IMG/VR virus record: IMGVR_UViG_3300037502_000383
Span: 1-60,999 of that record
From: a virus
Lineage: Duplodnaviria > Caudoviricetes
Reading direction: 5' to 3' (one strand)
DNA: 60,999 bases
Numbering within the stretch: position 1 is the stretch's first letter; every line of letters begins with the position of its first letter. The translations under genes and the position numbers were made by a program. Below the pieces are notes generated by a model that did not search any database, was not told the origin of the DNA, and saw nothing but the letters and a program-made list of their open reading frames with translations. Below are positions 44,390 through 60,999 of the stretch, in pieces.

Positions 44390-44698
44390 CTAAAATGGGA
44401 TGTCCTGATCATCTACTGGCGGCTCCGGCGCTGCCGGTCTTTGCGGTGGCTTCGGAGGCGTTGCACCATCAGCAGGCTTCTTCCAAGTGTTTACCTTGAG
44501 TGAGAAGTAGGTGCCGTACTGACCATCGTTCTGCCATGCGTCGAGCTTGACGGTAATCTCATCCTCGTCAGTCTCTTCCATGAGCTGCCGCAGATAGCTA
44601 CGCTCCAGCACTAGCTCGCCGTACAGGTCGGGCGACTTCGGATGTACCTTGCGCTGGCTGTAGTTCAGCCTGCCCGAGTTGGGGAATTTAGTTGCCAT
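44390..44698 (-). CDS. Single-stranded DNA-binding protein (DUF736-like)
   Basis: NSGxL...PDxxG...AW...YFSL; acidic DDQDIPF tail. Confidence 0.7.
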   Translation of the reverse strand: MATKFPNSGRLNYSQRKVHPKSPDLYGELVLERSYLRQLMEETDEDEITVKLDAWQNDGQYGTYFSLKVNTWKKPADGATPPKPPQRPAAPEPPVDDQDIPF

Positions 44699-45392
44699 CA
44701 GCAAATGCTCCTTTGTAAGTGGCGAATGTAGCGAGCAGTTCTTTGTAGGCCGCATCATCCTGCTGCTCGATAACCTTGTAGATGTTGGCGTTCGTGCGCC
44801 AGATGCTCATCACATCTTCCTTGTTAGAGGCGGCATCAAGCGCAGTAACCGTGGACTCAACAACTACGGCCAACCAATCACCAAACTCTGTGTCAGGCTG
44901 GGCAGATACCTTCAACTGCCACTCGCCGCTCTTGCCTTCCATCTTCTTCGGTGGAGTTGGTGCAGGCGGTGTAGGTGGTGCTGGCTTTGCTACTGGCTTC
45001 GGTGCTGCTACAGGCGCAGGCTTGCTGGCAGCATTACCATCATCGTCAGCCGGAGCGAGGCCAGCCGCAACCATCAGGCTGTACCTGCGAGCGTAGGTCA
45101 GCGCACTGCCAAACCCCTGCGGGTCATGCTTTGATGCTGGCACATACAGCCAACCGGACGACAACTGTTCACCAGACTCGTGAATAAACACGGTCTGGAT
45201 CTTGATGCCGTCGAGATGCTCGTCCGTCAACTGCATCAGGTAGATGCCGTTGTTGTTCAAGCCATCGATTACCGCCTCGATGCAGGCAGACAGGTCTGCG
45301 TACTTCGTGCGGAAGTGAGGATTGCTACTGGTCTTCAGCGCAGGACCAAACTCCTTCTGCGCTTTGACCAGAGCCGTGGCGATATTTTTCAT
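44688..45392 (-). CDS. erf: ERF family ssDNA-annealing recombinase
   Basis: NPHFxxKYADL, HESGE, PQxxGSALTYARRYSL...DDDGN. Confidence 0.9.
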   Translation of the reverse strand: MKNIATALVKAQKEFGPALKTSSNPHFRTKYADLSACIEAVIDGLNNNGIYLMQLTDEHLDGIKIQTVFIHESGEQLSSGWLYVPASKHDPQGFGSALTYARRYSLMVAAGLAPADDDGNAASKPAPVAAPKPVAKPAPPTPPAPTPPKKMEGKSGEWQLKVSAQPDTEFGDWLAVVVESTVTALDAASNKEDVMSIWRTNANIYKVIEQQDDAAYKELLATFATYKGAFADGN

Positions 45393-45404: not shown

Positions 45405-45554
45405 TTAGCTGCAAGTGGTATTGCATGAGCCTGCATAGCAGCAGGTAGTACAGAAGGTGCAGCGGCCATTGTTATCGCAGAACGTATGCGAAGTGCAGCT
45501 TGCGTATGCCAATGATGCTGCCGAGATAGCCCAGATAGCAATTAGGTATTTCAT
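45405..45554 (-). CDS. 49-aa secreted Cys-rich peptide (not in ORF track)
   Basis: MKYLIAIWAISAASLAYA|SCTSHTFCDNNGRCTFCTTCCYAGSCNTTCS; AAGGAG SD and ATGA overlap. Confidence 0.65.
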   Translation of the reverse strand: MKYLIAIWAISAASLAYASCTSHTFCDNNGRCTFCTTCCYAGSCNTTCS

Positions 45555-46426
45555 GATTGACTCTCCTTATAGGATTGGTACTGCTGACAAAATGGTGCGA
45601 CCTGACAGAAACTATCGCATCGTGTCCTGCCGCCCTCTCTCGTTTCCATGTAGTGCGTTCCCTTTTGATCAGCCATGAACGCTTCGGCTTCCTGCTTAAT
45701 CGTGAATACTTTCTTTGCCCGCTTGCCGCCTTCCTTCATTACGGCGTAAGTAGTGGGCTTCTCCCACATTTCTTCCGGCGTACACTCCGGCATCTCACCG
45801 CTGACCGCCGAGAAGTTGGCCTCGTTGTGCAGAGACAGTCGTGTTCTAACAAACTGCTCCCGCGCCTCGAAGTCCCACAGCGGAATCGTGATGGTGACAA
45901 TCGGTGCCTGCGGGTAGCCTTCTTTGTTCGCTGCTTCCCTGCGATTCCAATCCCGGACGATGCCAATGATCTGTAGACCGGTAACAGGCAGACCCTTCAC
46001 GCGCTCCACCAGCCATGCGTACAGATTCAACTGATCTATCCACTCGGTCTTCTCCTGCTGGACTGCCCACGCGGAGGTGACTTTGTAGTCGCTGATGACG
46101 ATGGATCCATCTGGCTGGAATGTCTGCAAGTCGATAGCACCGCTGATGCGCCAGCTTTCGAACGTGGTGAACAGCCGCTCCTCGACAACATGGTGATCAT
46201 CCTTACCATGCTGGAGAATGTTGTGGACTGCGCTGCCAAACAAAGACCAGACCTGATCTGCTGCATCTACCTCAATGTCGTCGGCATGACGGCGGCGCAA
46301 GAGGACAAGCTGCGGTGGCGAGAGGATCTCGGTGACGCTGATCTCGCTGCTGCCCCGGCTGTATGTCGGGCGCGTTATAACATTGATAAACGTCTCGGGC
46401 AGATTGAATTTGTTTGTCAGTTTCAT
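45551..46426 (-). CDS. PD-(D/E)XK exonuclease (Cas4/RecB-like partner of ERF)
   Basis: GSAVH, ISGAID, DYK, QLNLY, C-terminal RC..FC...FC. Confidence 0.8.
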   Translation of the reverse strand: MKLTNKFNLPETFINVITRPTYSRGSSEISVTEILSPPQLVLLRRRHADDIEVDAADQVWSLFGSAVHNILQHGKDDHHVVEERLFTTFESWRISGAIDLQTFQPDGSIVISDYKVTSAWAVQQEKTEWIDQLNLYAWLVERVKGLPVTGLQIIGIVRDWNRREAANKEGYPQAPIVTITIPLWDFEAREQFVRTRLSLHNEANFSAVSGEMPECTPEEMWEKPTTYAVMKEGGKRAKKVFTIKQEAEAFMADQKGTHYMETREGGRTRCDSFCQVAPFCQQYQSYKESQS

Positions 46427-49417: not shown

Positions 49418-49518
49418 TGTATCGGGCAGAGACAATAATCGAACCCTTAAAGTTTGGTTCTTATCCCTAAGGGGGAACGTGCCCGATACACGGAGAGCCA
49501 GACTTTAAGGGTTTTTTT
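49418..49518 (+). promoter_or_regulatory. Structured leader: terminator hairpin with competing/pseudoknot pairing
   Basis: 49442-49461 pairs 49494-49513 then T run; 49418-49428 pairs 49480-49490. Confidence 0.65.
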
Positions 49519-49551
49519 ATGGCCTCCGCAACCTTTGATTAGGACGGGAAC

Positions 49552-49818
49552 GTGGAAGAGCCGACAAACAGACAAGCCGTGCTGCGATTGCACGAAGCAA
49601 CGTCTCCAAAGTACGCCGTCTTTGCGCGTTCCCCATCTGGCCTTCGTGCCAACTTTAAATTTCTTCACGACTCACTTGAGTCAGCCATAGAACGCTGCCG
49701 TGAATATGCTGCTGACAAGGCAGCTCATGGTTACGTGGACTTTACGTATTACGCCATTGAGATTAAGCACCGCGTGGGTATTGAACGCGGCAAGATTGTT
49801 GACGAGCCAACGAAGTAA
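49552..49818 (+). CDS. Hypothetical protein
   Basis: 88-aa ORF downstream of structured leader. Confidence 0.5.
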   Translation: MEEPTNRQAVLRLHEATSPKYAVFARSPSGLRANFKFLHDSLESAIERCREYAADKAAHGYVDFTYYAIEIKHRVGIERGKIVDEPTK

Positions 49819-50148
49819 GTTACCTGTCCCGGCAGGTAGCCGGGCGCGCCTCCCGCGATAGCAGTGAGCCTGCATGGGCTGCTGGAGAGAGAACACTGGC
49901 CGAGGTCTCACCCGCCTGCGAGCCACGCCACCTGTCAGCGAGGGATGGCACAAGAGGGAAGGGCCAGTGGTGAGACATACCTTCCATCGAGATAATCGCT
50001 GCCTTCTGGGATTGCTAGGCTGCTAACACGTTTCAGTAGCTGGGCAGGGAGGATAACCCCGCCAGTGCTCCGCAAGGAGGGGGGCTATCACCCATGGGGG
50101 AACTAAACGCGGAACATACAATACATGGATGTTGACAGGAACAATGTG

Positions 50149-50177
50149 TTGACATACACTAGATCTAGATGTACATT
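50149..50177 (+). promoter_or_regulatory. Rightward sigma70 promoter upstream of the pentamer-array locus
   Basis: TTGACA-17 bp-TACATT; GGAGG SD downstream. Confidence 0.7.
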
Positions 50178-50201
50178 AAGTCCTAGATATAGGGAGGTGC
50201 G

Positions 50202-50408
50202 ATGACACAAGCAGAGTTGCTGGAGTTAGCGAAGCAAGCGGGCGGCGATGACTGGGGGATCTTCCGGGACTTCATGCCGGAGGTAGAGAAGCTGGCAGCG
50301 CTGATTGTGGAACGTGAGCGCGAACGTGCGGCCATGATTTGCCACCAGTGCCGGGACTGGGAATACGCCAGCGAGGAGATCGCGTACAGAATTTTGAATC
50401 AAGGGTGA
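50202..50408 (+). CDS. Hypothetical (AERE-family-like)
   Basis: GGGAGG SD; ERERERAAMIC. Confidence 0.65.
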   Translation: MTQAELLELAKQAGGDDWGIFRDFMPEVEKLAALIVERERERAAMICHQCRDWEYASEEIAYRILNQG

Positions 50409-50797
50409 GGCGAGCTTGGGTGCGGAATGGCCGGGCGAGGTGGCATCAGGTTTGGACTGGTAGGGCAGAGCTAGGAATGGCTGGGTCTGGTTCGGTGAGG
50501 AAGGGCGGGGCAGTGGGTAGTTCATTCGATGAGTGAACTATCCAATGCTGGGTCAGGTTAGGCAGAGTTGGGCAGGGATTGGAGAGGCGAGGCAAGTCGA
50601 TGTAAGGTAGGGCGAGGTCAGGTTAGGCTTGGCGGGGTCTGGTTTGGTGCAGCAAGGCGAGGTATGTAGTGGTTGGGTAAGGGCTGCTGTGCAGCGTATA
50701 GACGGTTCTCTGAGCCGTTTATGCGATGCGCGAGCATCATCGGGTACGGCGTGGCAAGTCACGGCGGGGCAAGCCCCGGTTCGGTTAGGTAAGGGTT
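50404..50797 (+). ncRNA. Putative guide-RNA array: three phased GG(Y)NN pentamer tracts separated by two conserved hairpins
   Basis: Tracts 50404-50513 (19/22 pentamers start GG), 50551-50680 (21/26), 50743-50792 (8/10); hairpins 50510-50548 and 50691-50729. Confidence 0.7.
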
Positions 50798-50816
50798 TTT
50801 AACTTTGGAGAACAAA

Positions 50817-51431
50817 ATGTCAAAAGCAAAACAAGTCGCAGAGGTAACTAACGGTGGTGCAGAAACAATTGAATCTGGCATCCCGTACATCGCTCACATC
50901 ACCATCGAGGGCAGTGCTGACTTCCTATTCCATCGATGGAATTGTGAAGCGGTAGAGACCAAAGCTAAAGCAGCCAAGAATTCTGCGGCTAAGAAGACGG
51001 ACGATATTGAGTCTTACGTTTGGCGCAATGACGACGGTGAGCTGTGCTGCCCCGGCGAATACCTGAGACAGTCAGTCATCATGGCGGCGAAGTTTAAGCA
51101 AGATCCACGCAGCCCAAGGAAGAGCGCGATGGATTTGACGAAGGCAGGCGTAGTCAGCCTGACCAATCTGGCTTCGTTTGGTAAAGAGAAATGGGATTAC
51201 GAAGACAAGCGCCGTGTCGTGATCCAGCGGGCTGGTGTCAATCGAGTGCGGCCTGCAATGAAAGCGGGATACCGGTTGGACTTTGATCTGATGATCTTGA
51301 CGCCGGAATATCTGGATCGGTTTTGGATTCAGGACACGCTGTCTACGGCTGGCCGATTGGTTGGGATTGGCGATTTCCGCCCGACGTTTGGCCGGTTCAA
51401 TGTAGTGAAGTTTGAAGTATCAGAAGGATAA
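50817..51431 (+). CDS. Solo RAMP/Cas7-like RNA-binding protein (204 aa)
   Basis: GGAG SD; HITIEGSADFLFH first strand, LCCPGEYLRQSV (cf. RAMP IPGSSLKG), C-terminal Gly-rich loop AGRLVGIGDFRPTFGRFNV; flanked by pentamer arrays. Confidence 0.65.
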   Translation: MSKAKQVAEVTNGGAETIESGIPYIAHITIEGSADFLFHRWNCEAVETKAKAAKNSAAKKTDDIESYVWRNDDGELCCPGEYLRQSVIMAAKFKQDPRSPRKSAMDLTKAGVVSLTNLASFGKEKWDYEDKRRVVIQRAGVNRVRPAMKAGYRLDFDLMILTPEYLDRFWIQDTLSTAGRLVGIGDFRPTFGRFNVVKFEVSEG

Positions 51432-51437
51432 AAACTA

Positions 51438-51492
51438 GGCGTGGCTTGGTGCGGCGAGATCCGGTACGCCAAGGTCAGGCAAGGCAAGGGTT
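51438..51492 (+). ncRNA. Fourth GG(Y)NN pentamer tract directly downstream of the RAMP-like gene
   Basis: GGCGT GGCTT GGTGC GGCGA GATCC GGTAC GCCAA GGTCA GGCAA GGCAA GGGTT. Confidence 0.65.
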
Positions 51493-51508
51493 CTTTAAGG
51501 GGACAATA

Positions 51509-52591
51509 GTGATTCAATTTAACCGCAGTTCAAGCCTTCGTGTTGATTCAGAGATCAACATGATGATCGCAGGGATGACCGCTGGTATCAGTACGCGGCC
51601 ACACCTAGTCACTGACACTCTGCTGGAGCTAGGTGCCAAGTATCCAGAGAATCTGAGATTGGCAGCGATTGCAGCGCGCATGGCGTGGTGGGCAGCGATT
51701 GATTGGGAAGACATAGACTTCATGCTGCCCATCATCCTGCCGCAGAACTTTACCTACAAGCAGGAGATCGTCGCTTGTGCTGGGTTCGAGCGCGCCAACC
51801 GCAAGTGGGGCATCGAAGAGGATCAGTGGTATTTGTACTGCGGCTTTGCTCCGAAGCTGATTACACCCGGCGGTCGAGTGATTCACGGCCACGTTGTGCA
51901 TCGCCCGAAGACCGGCACTGTGTTTGAAATACTTGAAGAGCTGGTGAACACGGCAATCTACGCTGAGATGCAAGGCTATTCGCTGAAGGTGGAAATGACG
52001 GGCGACTGGTGGAAATACGAGGAACCCTTCGAGGAGATCTTTGCGGATGTGTTCGAGTTCTGCCACGGCAAGCTGCCACGCAGTTTGATGGATGGTGCGC
52101 GAACAGAGATGCTCAAGGCATCGGATGCCACGATAGCAGAGTTTGCCTGCCTGAAAGAAGGTTGGTACAACGATATCACCGTGGCTATCAATGATGCGGT
52201 GTCGTATCCATTCCCGCTTGAGCCGGACATTGGCATCATGTATCTGCGCGGTGGCAACGCTTTGCATACGAAGACAGTGCTGCCGCCTGCTGGTCTGATC
52301 TGGCAAGAGCTATCATGGATGAGCAAGTTTGTCCGCCGCCGGGTGGTCATGTCAGATGATCCATCGCTCGGCCAGATGATTCATACCGGCGATGCTTGGG
52401 TGCAGGATCGTACCGATCAGGGCAGCAGCACTTCCTGCTTGCCTGAGATGCAGCACTTTCTTGATATGTACGAGGCCAAGCTGAACTGGTCTTGCCCATC
52501 GGCACCGATAGTCAATTCAGTGCAATGGAGTCGCGTTGACCGTGAGAATTACAGCCAAGTTAATCCTGTCTGGAGGTACATGATCTTATGA
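51509..52591 (+). CDS. Hypothetical, possibly degenerate fucosyltransferase-like (GT-B) protein
   Basis: AAGGGG SD before GTG; IGIMYLRGG and VVMSDD resemble NodZ/GT11/GT23 motifs. Confidence 0.45.
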   Translation: MIQFNRSSSLRVDSEINMMIAGMTAGISTRPHLVTDTLLELGAKYPENLRLAAIAARMAWWAAIDWEDIDFMLPIILPQNFTYKQEIVACAGFERANRKWGIEEDQWYLYCGFAPKLITPGGRVIHGHVVHRPKTGTVFEILEELVNTAIYAEMQGYSLKVEMTGDWWKYEEPFEEIFADVFEFCHGKLPRSLMDGARTEMLKASDATIAEFACLKEGWYNDITVAINDAVSYPFPLEPDIGIMYLRGGNALHTKTVLPPAGLIWQELSWMSKFVRRRVVMSDDPSLGQMIHTGDAWVQDRTDQGSSTSCLPEMQHFLDMYEAKLNWSCPSAPIVNSVQWSRVDRENYSQVNPVWRYMIL

Positions 52592-60315: not shown

Positions 60316-60999
60316 ATGATGAAATCACCTAGTAGAAAACAACTAAGGGAAGCATTAAAGACAAAAGATATCGGGACAGTCTTAAACGTTCCGCGCGGAT
60401 CCCTGACTGCCAAGCAAAAACGGTTTGCCGAAGCTATAGCGCTGGAAGGGATGACGGGCGCTGATGCGTACAGGGCAGCGTACAGCGCGAAGGGTTCGCC
60501 CAAGTCAGTAGGAACGAATGCAAGCAAGTTGAAGGCACAAGCCCGAATCCAACTAGAACTAGCCGCGCTGGAACAGGCTAAACAGGTGGCTGCGTTGCAT
60601 ACTGCCGAAGCTTTGCGGTCTTTGGTGATTTCTTCGCTCACTTCGGCGCTCATTGACCCCGACACAAAACCGGCAACGCGCATCCAAGCGGCTAAAGTTC
60701 TCGGACAGGTGACAGAAGTGGCGGCATTCACCGAGCGCAAGGAAATCCGGCACATCAAGGATAGCGGCGCGATACGCGAGCAGATACTAGACCAGCTAAA
60801 AGGGTTGATGCTTGGCACAGCGGACGCGGAGACAGTCGAAGCGAATGACCTGCTAGCGGAGTTGTCAGGTGAGCAACCCCACCCCGACCCCACCCCCGCC
60901 GCGCCAGAATGGGACTCCGCCGCGCATGTACATAGTAATGAGCACGAACCATCCGCAGAAATATCGGAACCCCCCCAAGAATTTTCCGATCCCAGCGAA
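60316..60999 (+). CDS. terS: Terminase small subunit (3'-truncated; absent from ORF track)
   Basis: Open frame to window end: LTAKQKRFAEAIA...ADAYRAAY...ASKL HTH motif. Confidence 0.75.
   Translation, partial: MMKSPSRKQLREALKTKDIGTVLNVPRGSLTAKQKRFAEAIALEGMTGADAYRAAYSAKGSPKSVGTNASKLKAQARIQLELAALEQAKQVAALHTAEALRSLVISSLTSALIDPDTKPATRIQAAKVLGQVTEVAAFTERKEIRHIKDSGAIREQILDQLKGLMLGTADAETVEANDLLAELSGEQPHPDPTPAAPEWDSAAHVHSNEHEPSAEISEPPQEFSDPSE

Follow-up and report, generated by a model that had tools for sequence, protein, structure and literature searches.

What is the function of two small hairpins, different in sequence and alike in shape, that interrupt a run of five-base repeats in a phage genome? 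The question is raised by the 60,999-base IMG/VR record IMGVR_UViG_3300037502_000383, analysed here over its whole length and called the window below, in which tracts of GG-starting pentamers (T1 to T4) surround a gene for a small protein, vipr, and the hairpins separate the first three of these tracts (coordinates in Table 1). An earlier note, made from the letters of the sequence, had proposed that the hairpins act as RNA and serve as processing or boundary signals comparable to the repeats of CRISPR arrays. We show that the two hairpins are real, conserved RNA structures, and we consider it likely that they are a clade-specific closing element, either a tail or a handle, of the guide RNAs of a Viral Interference Programmable Repeat (VIPR) system. 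The window itself, with a completeness estimate of 95%, is very probably a near-complete 61-kb phage genome that carries this system.

Both hairpins are found at the positions and with the sequences given in the earlier note, and they have the architecture it attributed to them, namely a GCA/UGC base, a G opposite an A, a 14-bp stem, a UUC-nnn-GAG apex and, as read directly from the letters, two G·U pairs in hairpin 1 and three in hairpin 2. Folded as plus-strand RNA, hairpin 1 reaches -24.3 kcal/mol (z -5.55) and hairpin 2 reaches -28.3 kcal/mol (z -6.32), and each is more stable than all of 200 shuffled sequences. The complementary strands fold worse because the G·U pairs turn into A·C: the complement of hairpin 1 gives -14.9 kcal/mol (z -4.81) and that of hairpin 2 gives -11.6 kcal/mol (z -0.84), a value that 39 of 200 shuffles matched.

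The two hairpins are members of a larger family. Using the 204-amino-acid Vipr protein as query, we collected 80 related loci from IMG/VR (52-92% identity; numbered here with the prefix L), and a scan for stems revealed similar hairpins of 39-45 nucleotides between the arrays of L002 to L012. A seed alignment of 16 hairpins from the window and L002-L012 (A2) and the structure proposed in the earlier note were used to build a covariance model, R1, which was run on both strands of the window and the 80 loci (531 kb). The search returned 31 matches at E ≤ 1e-6, 24 of them distinct, all of them on the plus strand, placed among GG tracts 5' of the vipr homologue, and all confined to the window and to L001-L012, loci with Vipr proteins that are 84-92% identical. 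On the plus strand of the 61-kb window there are two matches, and both are the hairpins described above (hairpin 2 within 50678-50742, 77.9 bits, E 6.3e-20; hairpin 1 within 50497-50561, 54.4 bits, E 3.6e-13). The family counts use the 31 matches and leave out four marginal ones (E 0.04-0.5), of which three are the reverse strands of plus-strand hairpins, at 14-18 bits (two with E 0.5) against 40-85 bits for the plus-strand hairpins, and one lies in L058 (E 0.53).

Comparison of the 24 distinct copies reveals extensive covariation. Of 408 pair cells, 96.1% are paired, and 11 of the 17 pairs have copies in which both sides have changed (60 cells), whereas none of 500 shuffles reached the observed percentage paired or the covariation score, and sliding the partner column by 1-3 positions lowers pairing to 28.6-47.5%. 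An alignment fitted to the model favours the structure; in an unfitted MAFFT alignment 94.9% of cells are paired and the same 11 pairs are supported, and RNAalifold independently predicts the same 17 pairs. Some features hardly vary: all 24 copies have the G opposite A and a U·G wobble at pair 31-39, a second wobble at pair 22-49 is kept in 22 of 24, and the UUC/GAG apex is almost fixed, whereas the middle of the stem varies freely. The invariant U·G pairs are a sign of selection at the RNA level, and we read the pattern as selection on RNA shape with few read-out positions. A locus contains up to four copies of the hairpin, each flanked by two GG tracts. Rfam searches found no family in the whole window at the gathering score, including no CRISPR family and no ribozyme, and no match at E ≤ 1 in 49750-50850, including no hammerhead or other ribozyme.

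These observations bear directly on whether the hairpins might work as DNA, for example as palindromic protein-binding sites, cruciforms or replication-origin elements, a role that could be suspected from the position of the locus between recombination and replication genes. We regard this as extremely improbable, and a DNA palindrome or origin was rejected on strand asymmetry: the complement folds far worse, with A·C where the RNA would have U·G, the three minus-strand matches to R1 all overlap plus-strand hairpins and score far lower, and the changes between copies preserve pairing, not sequence. The proposal that the hairpins act as RNA is thus supported by the strand asymmetry, the invariant wobbles and the compensatory changes.

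At the base of the stem, other pairings compete. In 23 of the 24 copies the basal GCAG(C) can pair alternatively with an upstream (G)CUGC, which yields a small 5' hairpin with a loop of UAU, UGU, UAG, UUCG, UUUG, GCAA or GAAA (UNU, UUCG, UUUG and GNRA types), and in about 17 of the 24 the 3' GAUGC has a possible downstream partner, GCAUC, with GUAA, GUGA or GCGA (GNRA) as the loop. The 5' mini-helix is paired in 91.7% of cells, the 3' mini-helix in 74.2%, and the basal stem itself in 94 of 96 cells, with compensatory changes from GC to AU twice at pair 16-55 and from CG to UA once at pair 20-51. It can be argued that the 5' mini-hairpin forms, because its loops carry stable-tetraloop signatures. 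In the window, hairpin 2 has both mini-hairpin options and hairpin 1 has neither, leaving it the extended form only. Hairpin 1 is a divergent member of the family, and its pair 20-51, next to the G·A, is U-A, compensatory relative to the C-G of 22 other copies.

The identity of the neighbouring protein connects these hairpins to VIPR. The window protein matches PDB entry 36pp, 'SUSP1 Vipr protein', with E 6.5e-5 as a single sequence and 1.4e-9 with a profile of 39 sequences (alignment A1, from the window and 38 of the 80 loci, spanning 52-92% identity; L080 was dropped for an in-frame stop). The same profile located the SUSP1 vipr gene in the record of Escherichia phage phiSUSP1 (KT454805.2, 28474-29061, minus strand), and BLASTP against the product of this coding sequence gave 24% identity over 187 amino acids (E 8e-9). 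The glycine-rich loop GIGDFRPTFGRF is aligned with GVGDWRPRFGRF of SUSP1, with the motif GxGD[FW]RPxFGRF, and H39 of the window protein aligns with H17 of SUSP1 Vipr. By these profile and pairwise comparisons, the window protein is homologous to the solved SUSP1 Vipr. An AlphaFold2 model (pLDDT 84.9, pTM 0.78) gave 138 Foldseek matches at E ≤ 0.001, with a probability of 1.00 and a TM score of ~0.5 at the top, and the top matches are chains of ~190-220 amino acids in type VII and type III-A (Csm) CRISPR effector complexes, which we take to be Cas7-family backbone subunits (Cas7/Csm3). The predicted fold of the protein is therefore Cas7-like.

VIPR is an RNA-guided DNA-silencing system that was first described in 2026 (bioRxiv 10.64898/2026.04.26.720920). 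As presented in that preprint, Vipr is a protein of ~20 kDa with a minimal RAMP fold (RRM core, glycine-rich loop, thumb), and its guide RNAs, the vrRNAs, consist of 9-16 YNNGG repeats with a constant GGY and a hypervariable NN, encoded as intergenic repeats of at least 4 units that flank vipr on its strand. Behind each tract comes an invariable 3' tail of ~40 nucleotides whose structure is conserved (in the SUSP1 clade it is a pseudoknot), and the authors compare this tail with the repeat handle of CRISPR RNAs (10.64898/2026.04.26.720920, section 6); the NN dinucleotides read target DNA with one base skipped per unit, and an accessory gene, vap (vipr-accessory), usually adjoins vipr (10.64898/2026.04.26.720920). 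Seven types are distinguished there, including some with staggered and some with hammerhead-interspersed arrays, and 'processed vrRNAs' are mentioned (10.64898/2026.04.26.720920). In SUSP1, small-RNA sequencing and cryo-electron microscopy place the structured element 3' of the tract (10.64898/2026.04.26.720920, 10.64898/2026.04.26.720927), and the 3' pseudoknot caps the vrRNA in the cryo-electron microscopy maps (10.64898/2026.04.26.720927). Two further reports describe satellites with solo vrRNAs that share the tail (10.64898/2026.10.15.759431) and the recovery of VIPR arrays through their 5-nucleotide periodicity (10.64898/2026.10.21.760802).

The pentamer tracts of the window agree with this description. 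Just 5' of vipr lie ~400 bases without a credible open reading frame (ORF; 50404-50816), and on the plus strand GG recurs every 5 nucleotides (at least 6 of 8 in register) in four blocks, 50399-50524, 50546-50686, 50743-50803 and 51438-51493. Outside these blocks the window has one periodic match, a CC-every-5-nucleotides stretch at 60869-60919 in C-rich, apparently coding sequence, which we take as chance. The third position of the unit is a pyrimidine in 82% of the 43 window units and in 92% of 2771 units from the family, and positions 4-5 are near-uniform in both; the family units come from chains of at least 5 units, which by construction have GG at positions 1-2. On the strand of the gene 300 such chains were counted, against 5 on the opposite one, and arrays beside the homologue are GG-periodic on its own strand in 76 of the 80 loci and CC-periodic, i.e. 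on the other strand, in 4. The window thus combines a small Vipr protein, GGY/NN tracts and a conserved structured extension directly after T1 and T2. The system is already in print, and the window supplies another instance of it, not a new kind of system. Several earlier candidates, namely primase sites, a protein sponge of the TRAP or CsrA kind and an origin based on an R-loop or a G-quadruplex, were dropped after the homology to Vipr and the published GGY/NN code had been recognised.

The four tracts differ in their surroundings. T1, whose final unit (GGCAG) shares letters with the basal part of hairpin 1, is presumed by analogy to be the guide part of a first vrRNA, and T2 is likewise presumed to be that of a second, or of two guides. 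When 50101-51560 was compared with the 12 close loci by blastn, homology was continuous solely across hairpin 2 (from ~50671-50683), T3 and vipr; for T1, T2 and hairpin 1 there was no nucleotide match in L001-L008 and there were ~70% array-level matches in L009-L012, and the lack of matches to T1 and T2 in L001-L008 is consistent with hypervariable guides. T3 and T4 both end in AAGGGUU(Y)UUUAA, after which comes the ribosome-binding site of the gene that follows, vipr in the case of T3 and the next ORF in that of T4. In an alignment of eight relatives, GG is invariant every 5 nucleotides in T3 and T4 while the intervening bases vary, so these tracts behave like guide tracts, and they could be either ordinary guides or sites of Vipr autoregulation.

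If the published mechanism applies to this phage, the plus-strand transcript would carry the GGY/NN tracts, and Vipr protomers would polymerise along each tract, holding GGY and exposing NN. The NN dinucleotides would then read a double-stranded DNA target, skipping one base per unit, and silence it, the target typically lying in a competing phage or satellite. The 204-amino-acid protein is presumed, by analogy with SUSP1, to be the vrRNA-binding filament subunit. The hairpin, with its 39 nucleotides, 17 pairs, invariant G opposite A and two near-invariant U·G pairs, would close each guide tract, and three roles can be envisaged for it: it might set the end of one guide and the start of the next in a multi-guide transcript, it might protect or define the 3' end after processing, and it might provide a fixed landmark beside the last GG unit for Vipr or a processing enzyme. 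Transcription, cutting, 3' attachment, contact with Vipr and DNA targeting by the window locus are what we infer from the systems already studied.

SUSP1, a type II system, is the closest point of comparison. Like the window, it encodes a homologous small Vipr in a phage genome, with GGY/NN tracts on the strand of the gene on both sides of vipr and a structured element right after the last GG. In its sequence, ~12 GG units run directly into the pseudoknot at one site upstream of vipr and vap1 and at three sites downstream of them, and in the window clade a GG stands two bases before the element in every copy, as in SUSP1. The two systems also differ in several respects: the tracts of SUSP1 have ~12 units against 22 and 27 in T1 and T2, vap1 directly follows its vipr whereas the downstream ORF of the window is unrelated and poorly conserved, the window has additional tail-less tracts that abut ribosome-binding sites, and the identity of the two Vipr proteins is low. 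The substitution of a hairpin for the pseudoknot, the tracts of 22-27 units and the tail-less tracts at ribosome-binding sites may be new, and the supplements of the preprints may already cover them.

A number of points weigh against the assignment of the hairpins as closing elements of vrRNAs. The tail of SUSP1 is an H-type pseudoknot of ~35-40 nucleotides, and the 17-pair hairpin of the window has no sequence similarity to it. The basal GCA/UGC stem and the mini-hairpins are mutually exclusive and both are supported, so that the exact fold is not settled. T1 and T2, with 22 and 27 units, exceed the published 9-16, and T3 and T4 are without any hairpin, which means that a hairpin is not needed after every tract. 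No vap gene was recognised near vipr by Pfam, PHROG, the atlas or comparison with the 80 loci. In the window, L005 and L009 alike, the first hairpin has a tract before it and the last hairpin has one behind it, and counting therefore cannot separate a 3' tail from a 5' handle; the GG phase is also kept on both sides of the hairpin, with 73% of upstream and 70% of downstream GG in two adjacent phases. RNA ends, expression and protein-RNA contact for this phage rest on analogy. Finally, no natural DNA target was found by the 1-nucleotide-skip rule in the window and the 80 loci or with five seeds in IMG/VR, and, as the exact-seed scan is much less sensitive than the published nhmmer search, this null result is a failed search and not evidence against targeting.

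Within the proposed role, we think that the hairpin probably belongs to the preceding tract as its 3' tail, by homology with SUSP1. The hairpin could also be the 5' handle of the following tract, in which case the guides with a handle would be T2 and T3, and T1 would be either a leader or a guide that lacks one. Such an arrangement would fit the fact that T3, the tract nearest to vipr on its 5' side, has a hairpin in front of it and none behind, as well as the equally regular GG phase downstream of the hairpin and the nucleotide homology with relatives that continues from hairpin 2 through T3 into vipr. However, the SUSP1 element lies 3' of the tract in sequence and, according to the preprints, by small-RNA sequencing and cryo-electron microscopy, and T4 has no hairpin on either side, so there are tail-less tracts under both models; we judge the 5' handle to be a distinctly improbable arrangement.

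A different question is whether the hairpin would stay on the mature guide at all. Host enzymes of the RNase III type could use the hairpins as substrates that just cut the transcript, the hairpin being removed or halved in the mature guide and unbound by Vipr. Helices of ~18 bp with one internal mismatch are roughly as long as RNase III substrates already known, and the tracts are not separated from vipr by any terminator-like site, so some processing seems needed. The 'processed vrRNAs' and the ribozyme-interspersed arrays of other VIPR types, as reported in the preprint (10.64898/2026.04.26.720920), also point to processing. Nonetheless, selection keeps the G opposite A, the U·G wobbles and the UUC/GAG apex, none of which a generic double-strand RNase needs, and in SUSP1 the tail stays on the mature RNA and is visible in the complex (10.64898/2026.04.26.720927). 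We therefore consider a role in cutting alone unlikely; it is compatible with a closing element, since cutting could happen beside a retained hairpin.

As parts of the vipr 5' leader that lie 3' of a promoter-like site, the hairpins might have yet another role, in which they would be cis-regulators of the vipr messenger (attenuators, stabilisers or terminators) unrelated to guide definition. This we find very unlikely, given that up to four copies occur per locus between GG tracts and that they are tied to the tracts and not to the distance from the start codon. An intrinsic terminator was rejected, since no U-tract follows the stems and a terminator scan found no terminator-like site at the hairpins, or anywhere between the promoter-like site (50132-50177) and 51303.

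The competing helices and the tail-less tracts can also be joined in one scheme. The hairpin would then be an undescribed class of vrRNA handle that switches between the extended 17-pair hairpin and three short helices (a 5' mini-hairpin with a UUCG/GNRA loop, the central stem and a 3' GNRA mini-hairpin), thereby coupling guide processing to filament capping, and T3 and T4 would not be guides but autoregulatory landing pads where Vipr filaments stop their own translation. We offer this as a speculative and rather improbable scheme. If it were true, the locus, with its tracts of 22-27 units, would represent a VIPR subtype that differs from type II in biogenesis and control.

Table 1. Positions of the repeat tracts, hairpins, genes and other features of the window discussed in the text.
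Feature	Position	Strand	Remarks
Erf recombination gene	44688-45392	minus	Pfam/PHROG family searches
PD-(D/E)XK exonuclease gene	45551-46426	minus	Pfam/PHROG family searches
GC-rich non-coding stretch	49815-50105		~290 bases, without a credible ORF; leftward early genes to one side, rightward ones to the other
Two overlapping sigma-70-like promoter matches	50132-50177	plus	TTGACA-17-TACACT and TTGACA-17-TACATT; 10/12 consensus positions each
Small ORF, 68 amino acids	50202-50408	plus	Between promoter-like site and first repeat tract; no Pfam or PHROG family
Tract T1	50404-50513	plus	22 units in one register: 19 GG-starting, 3 degenerate
Hairpin 1	50510-50548	plus	GCA/UGC base, G opposite A, 14-bp stem, UUC-GAU-GAG apex
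Tract T2	50551-50685	plus	27 units in one register: 22 GG-starting, 5 degenerate
Full tail element 2	50683-50738	plus	Hairpin 2 plus optional 5' and 3' mini-hairpins; coordinates from alignment A2
5' mini-hairpin of hairpin 2	50683-50695	plus	GCUGC-UGU-GCAGC; optional
Hairpin 2	50691-50729	plus	Inside full tail element 2
3' mini-hairpin of hairpin 2	50725-50738	plus	GAUGC-GCGA-GCAUC; optional
Tract T3	50743-50802	plus	~12 units, no hairpin after; continues into UUUUUAAC and vipr's ribosome-binding site (GGAG)
vipr	50817-51431	plus	204 amino acids, minimal RAMP protein; phrog_4652, no Pfam
Tract T4	51438-51492	plus	~11 units, no hairpin; ends in AAGGGUUCUUUAA just before the next ORF start
ORF in the position of vap, 360 amino acids	51509-52591	plus	75-base gap after vipr; operon position
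ParB-like, helicase and primase genes	downstream of the 51509-52591 ORF		Pfam/PHROG family searches

The earlier comparison of the hairpins with CRISPR repeats stands in part. The hairpins do punctuate guide-RNA tracts beside a RAMP-fold protein, and a published likeness between vrRNA tails and repeat handles exists; the analogy is looser than had been stated, as the stems differ and the 'spacers' are tandem repeats with guide information in 2 of 5 bases. As in class 1 CRISPR systems, with their Cas6-type hairpin handles and Cas7 filaments, a RAMP-fold protein is encoded and a structured element alternates with a variable guide part in a putative multi-guide transcript. In contrast to them, the window has no identical direct repeats, its hairpin stems vary between copies and covary, its guide would be a 5-nucleotide tandem repeat that reads its target non-contiguously, and the locus, which is phage-encoded, has no cas1/cas2, Cas6 or other cas genes nearby. 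The near-identical direct repeats, unique spacers and cas genes that together define CRISPR-Cas are thus not what this locus contains. Ribozyme-interspersed or staggered VIPR arrays (types I and V, as the legends of figs S18 and S19 present them) resemble the window in having guide tracts in a row with structured RNA separators, whereas the window hairpin has no known catalytic core and the window no Rfam ribozyme.

Punctuation of a different kind was found in more distant relatives. Other clades of this Vipr family have different structured elements at equivalent positions: a 13-bp hairpin with a 10-nucleotide AUAAGGAUAG-like loop in L044 (3784-4615) and L064 (3722-4751), a 51-nucleotide element in four copies in L074 (3658-4080), and an element of ~87 nucleotides that folds as a three-way junction in L047 (2919-4000). 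None of these elements belongs to an Rfam family in the loci scanned (including L047 2800-4255, at E ≤ 1). The punctuating element is thus clade-specific and the pentamer code common to the clades. Some loci have more than 1 kb of arrays (L041, L044, L049 and L064), and GG-periodic arrays of 0.7-1.6 kb lie 3' of vipr in L041 (3667-5240), L044 (3615-4823), L049 (3588-4318, with ~720 array bases uninterrupted) and L064 (3593-4992), a large non-coding share for a phage. L041 also contains a Hammerhead_II ribozyme (RF02276, 555-621, 51.9 bits, E 1.6e-7) ~2.4 kb upstream of its vipr homologue, outside the arrays of that locus and 3 kb away from them.

Among named phage records, Phage DSL-LC04 alone has a close homologue of Vipr (OR003939.1; L132, 2492-3109). 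Its Vipr is 70% identical over 98% of the protein, GG-periodic tracts lie upstream and its genome measures 61.5 kb, and in contrast to our assignment the record annotates the homologue as 'helix-turn-helix transcriptional regulator'. By sequence, this named phage appears to carry an unrecognised VIPR system. No hairpin of the R1 type was seen by eye in its upstream region (2160-2500), where the model itself was not run. The tracts and some different inverted repeats are found at 2190-2460; one of these repeats is a long-range pair, CTTAGTGGGGC and GCCCCACTAAG, that encloses a tract, and another is a hairpin plus T-run immediately 5' of the ribosome-binding site.

We also searched for targets and for traces of the locus in sequencing data. 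In the window and the 80 loci, with skips of 0-3 nucleotides allowed, the best 10-unit match was 16/20 for the 1-nucleotide skip against 17/20 for the 0- and 2-nucleotide controls, and the rule gave no self-target, which fits VIPR. Five exact seeds had 0, 7, 40, 24 and 13 exact matches in IMG/VR, none of which extends beyond the seed (best counts of bases outside it 12/28, 15/38, 16/38 and 11/28). Contigs assembled from public runs (Logan; 5 runs from 2 studies, shares 0.10-0.38), which show no ends, strand or level, cover relatives at 90-99% identity. Hairpin 2 is matched by contigs from four libraries, one of RNA and three probably of DNA, and next to the match these contigs have different GG-periodic sequence, a weak hint that the pattern of a constant tail and a variable tract recurs in the field.

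Experiments on VIPR have reportedly dealt with few systems so far, chiefly SUSP1 and P. fulva, and the locus described here adds a freshwater-phage clade, which besides the window includes 12 closely related contigs and, at a greater distance, at least 64 array-bearing loci. A simple covarying hairpin offers a clean, mutable model for the purpose of the tail, be it capping, processing or nucleation of the Vipr filament, and for the question of which tail features Vipr or a nuclease reads. Moreover, the wholesale replacement of the punctuating element between relatives, with the GGY/NN code kept, bears on how guide biogenesis evolved before CRISPR repeats.

In the genome, the VIPR locus has the recombination genes (Erf, exonuclease) on one side and the genes for replication (ParB-like, helicase, primase) on the other, and no tRNA or tmRNA was found in the window. 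The GC-rich stretch at 49815-50105 has no more structure than its shuffles (z +0.90) and no Rfam match at E ≤ 1. The promoter-like site that follows it is a candidate start for a transcript that would run from the small ORF through the repeat tracts and vipr into the next ORF, on the strength of consensus matches that are not enriched in the region (2 against a shuffle mean of 2.3). The small ORF, whose stop codon overlaps the first GG units of T1, is present in 2 of the 80 related loci (L001 and L002; tblastn). The 360-amino-acid ORF after vipr has no Pfam or PHROG family, its look-alikes in the atlas are unnamed clusters (≤ 0.90), and tblastn found it in the same two loci (36% over 380 amino acids in L001, 43% over 107 in L002). 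From such comparisons the gene after vipr appears to be often exchanged in this Vipr family; a clustering of the first ORF 3' of vipr in 77 loci was confounded by a 32-member cluster of spurious ORFs inside arrays.

Lastly, the motif AAGGGTTYTTTAA recurs with 0-2 mismatches three times within 2 kb on the plus strand (49507-49519, 50791-50803 and 51486-51498), each copy 13-25 nucleotides 5' of a start codon. It occurs 4 times in the whole window against 1.7 expected, and at least 4 occurrences were reached by 6 of 100 shuffles. Strings of the form GAGGGTT(Y)TTTA(A/C), similar to this motif, are present in the SUSP1 vrRNA leaders and before the SUSP1 vipr gene (L084).

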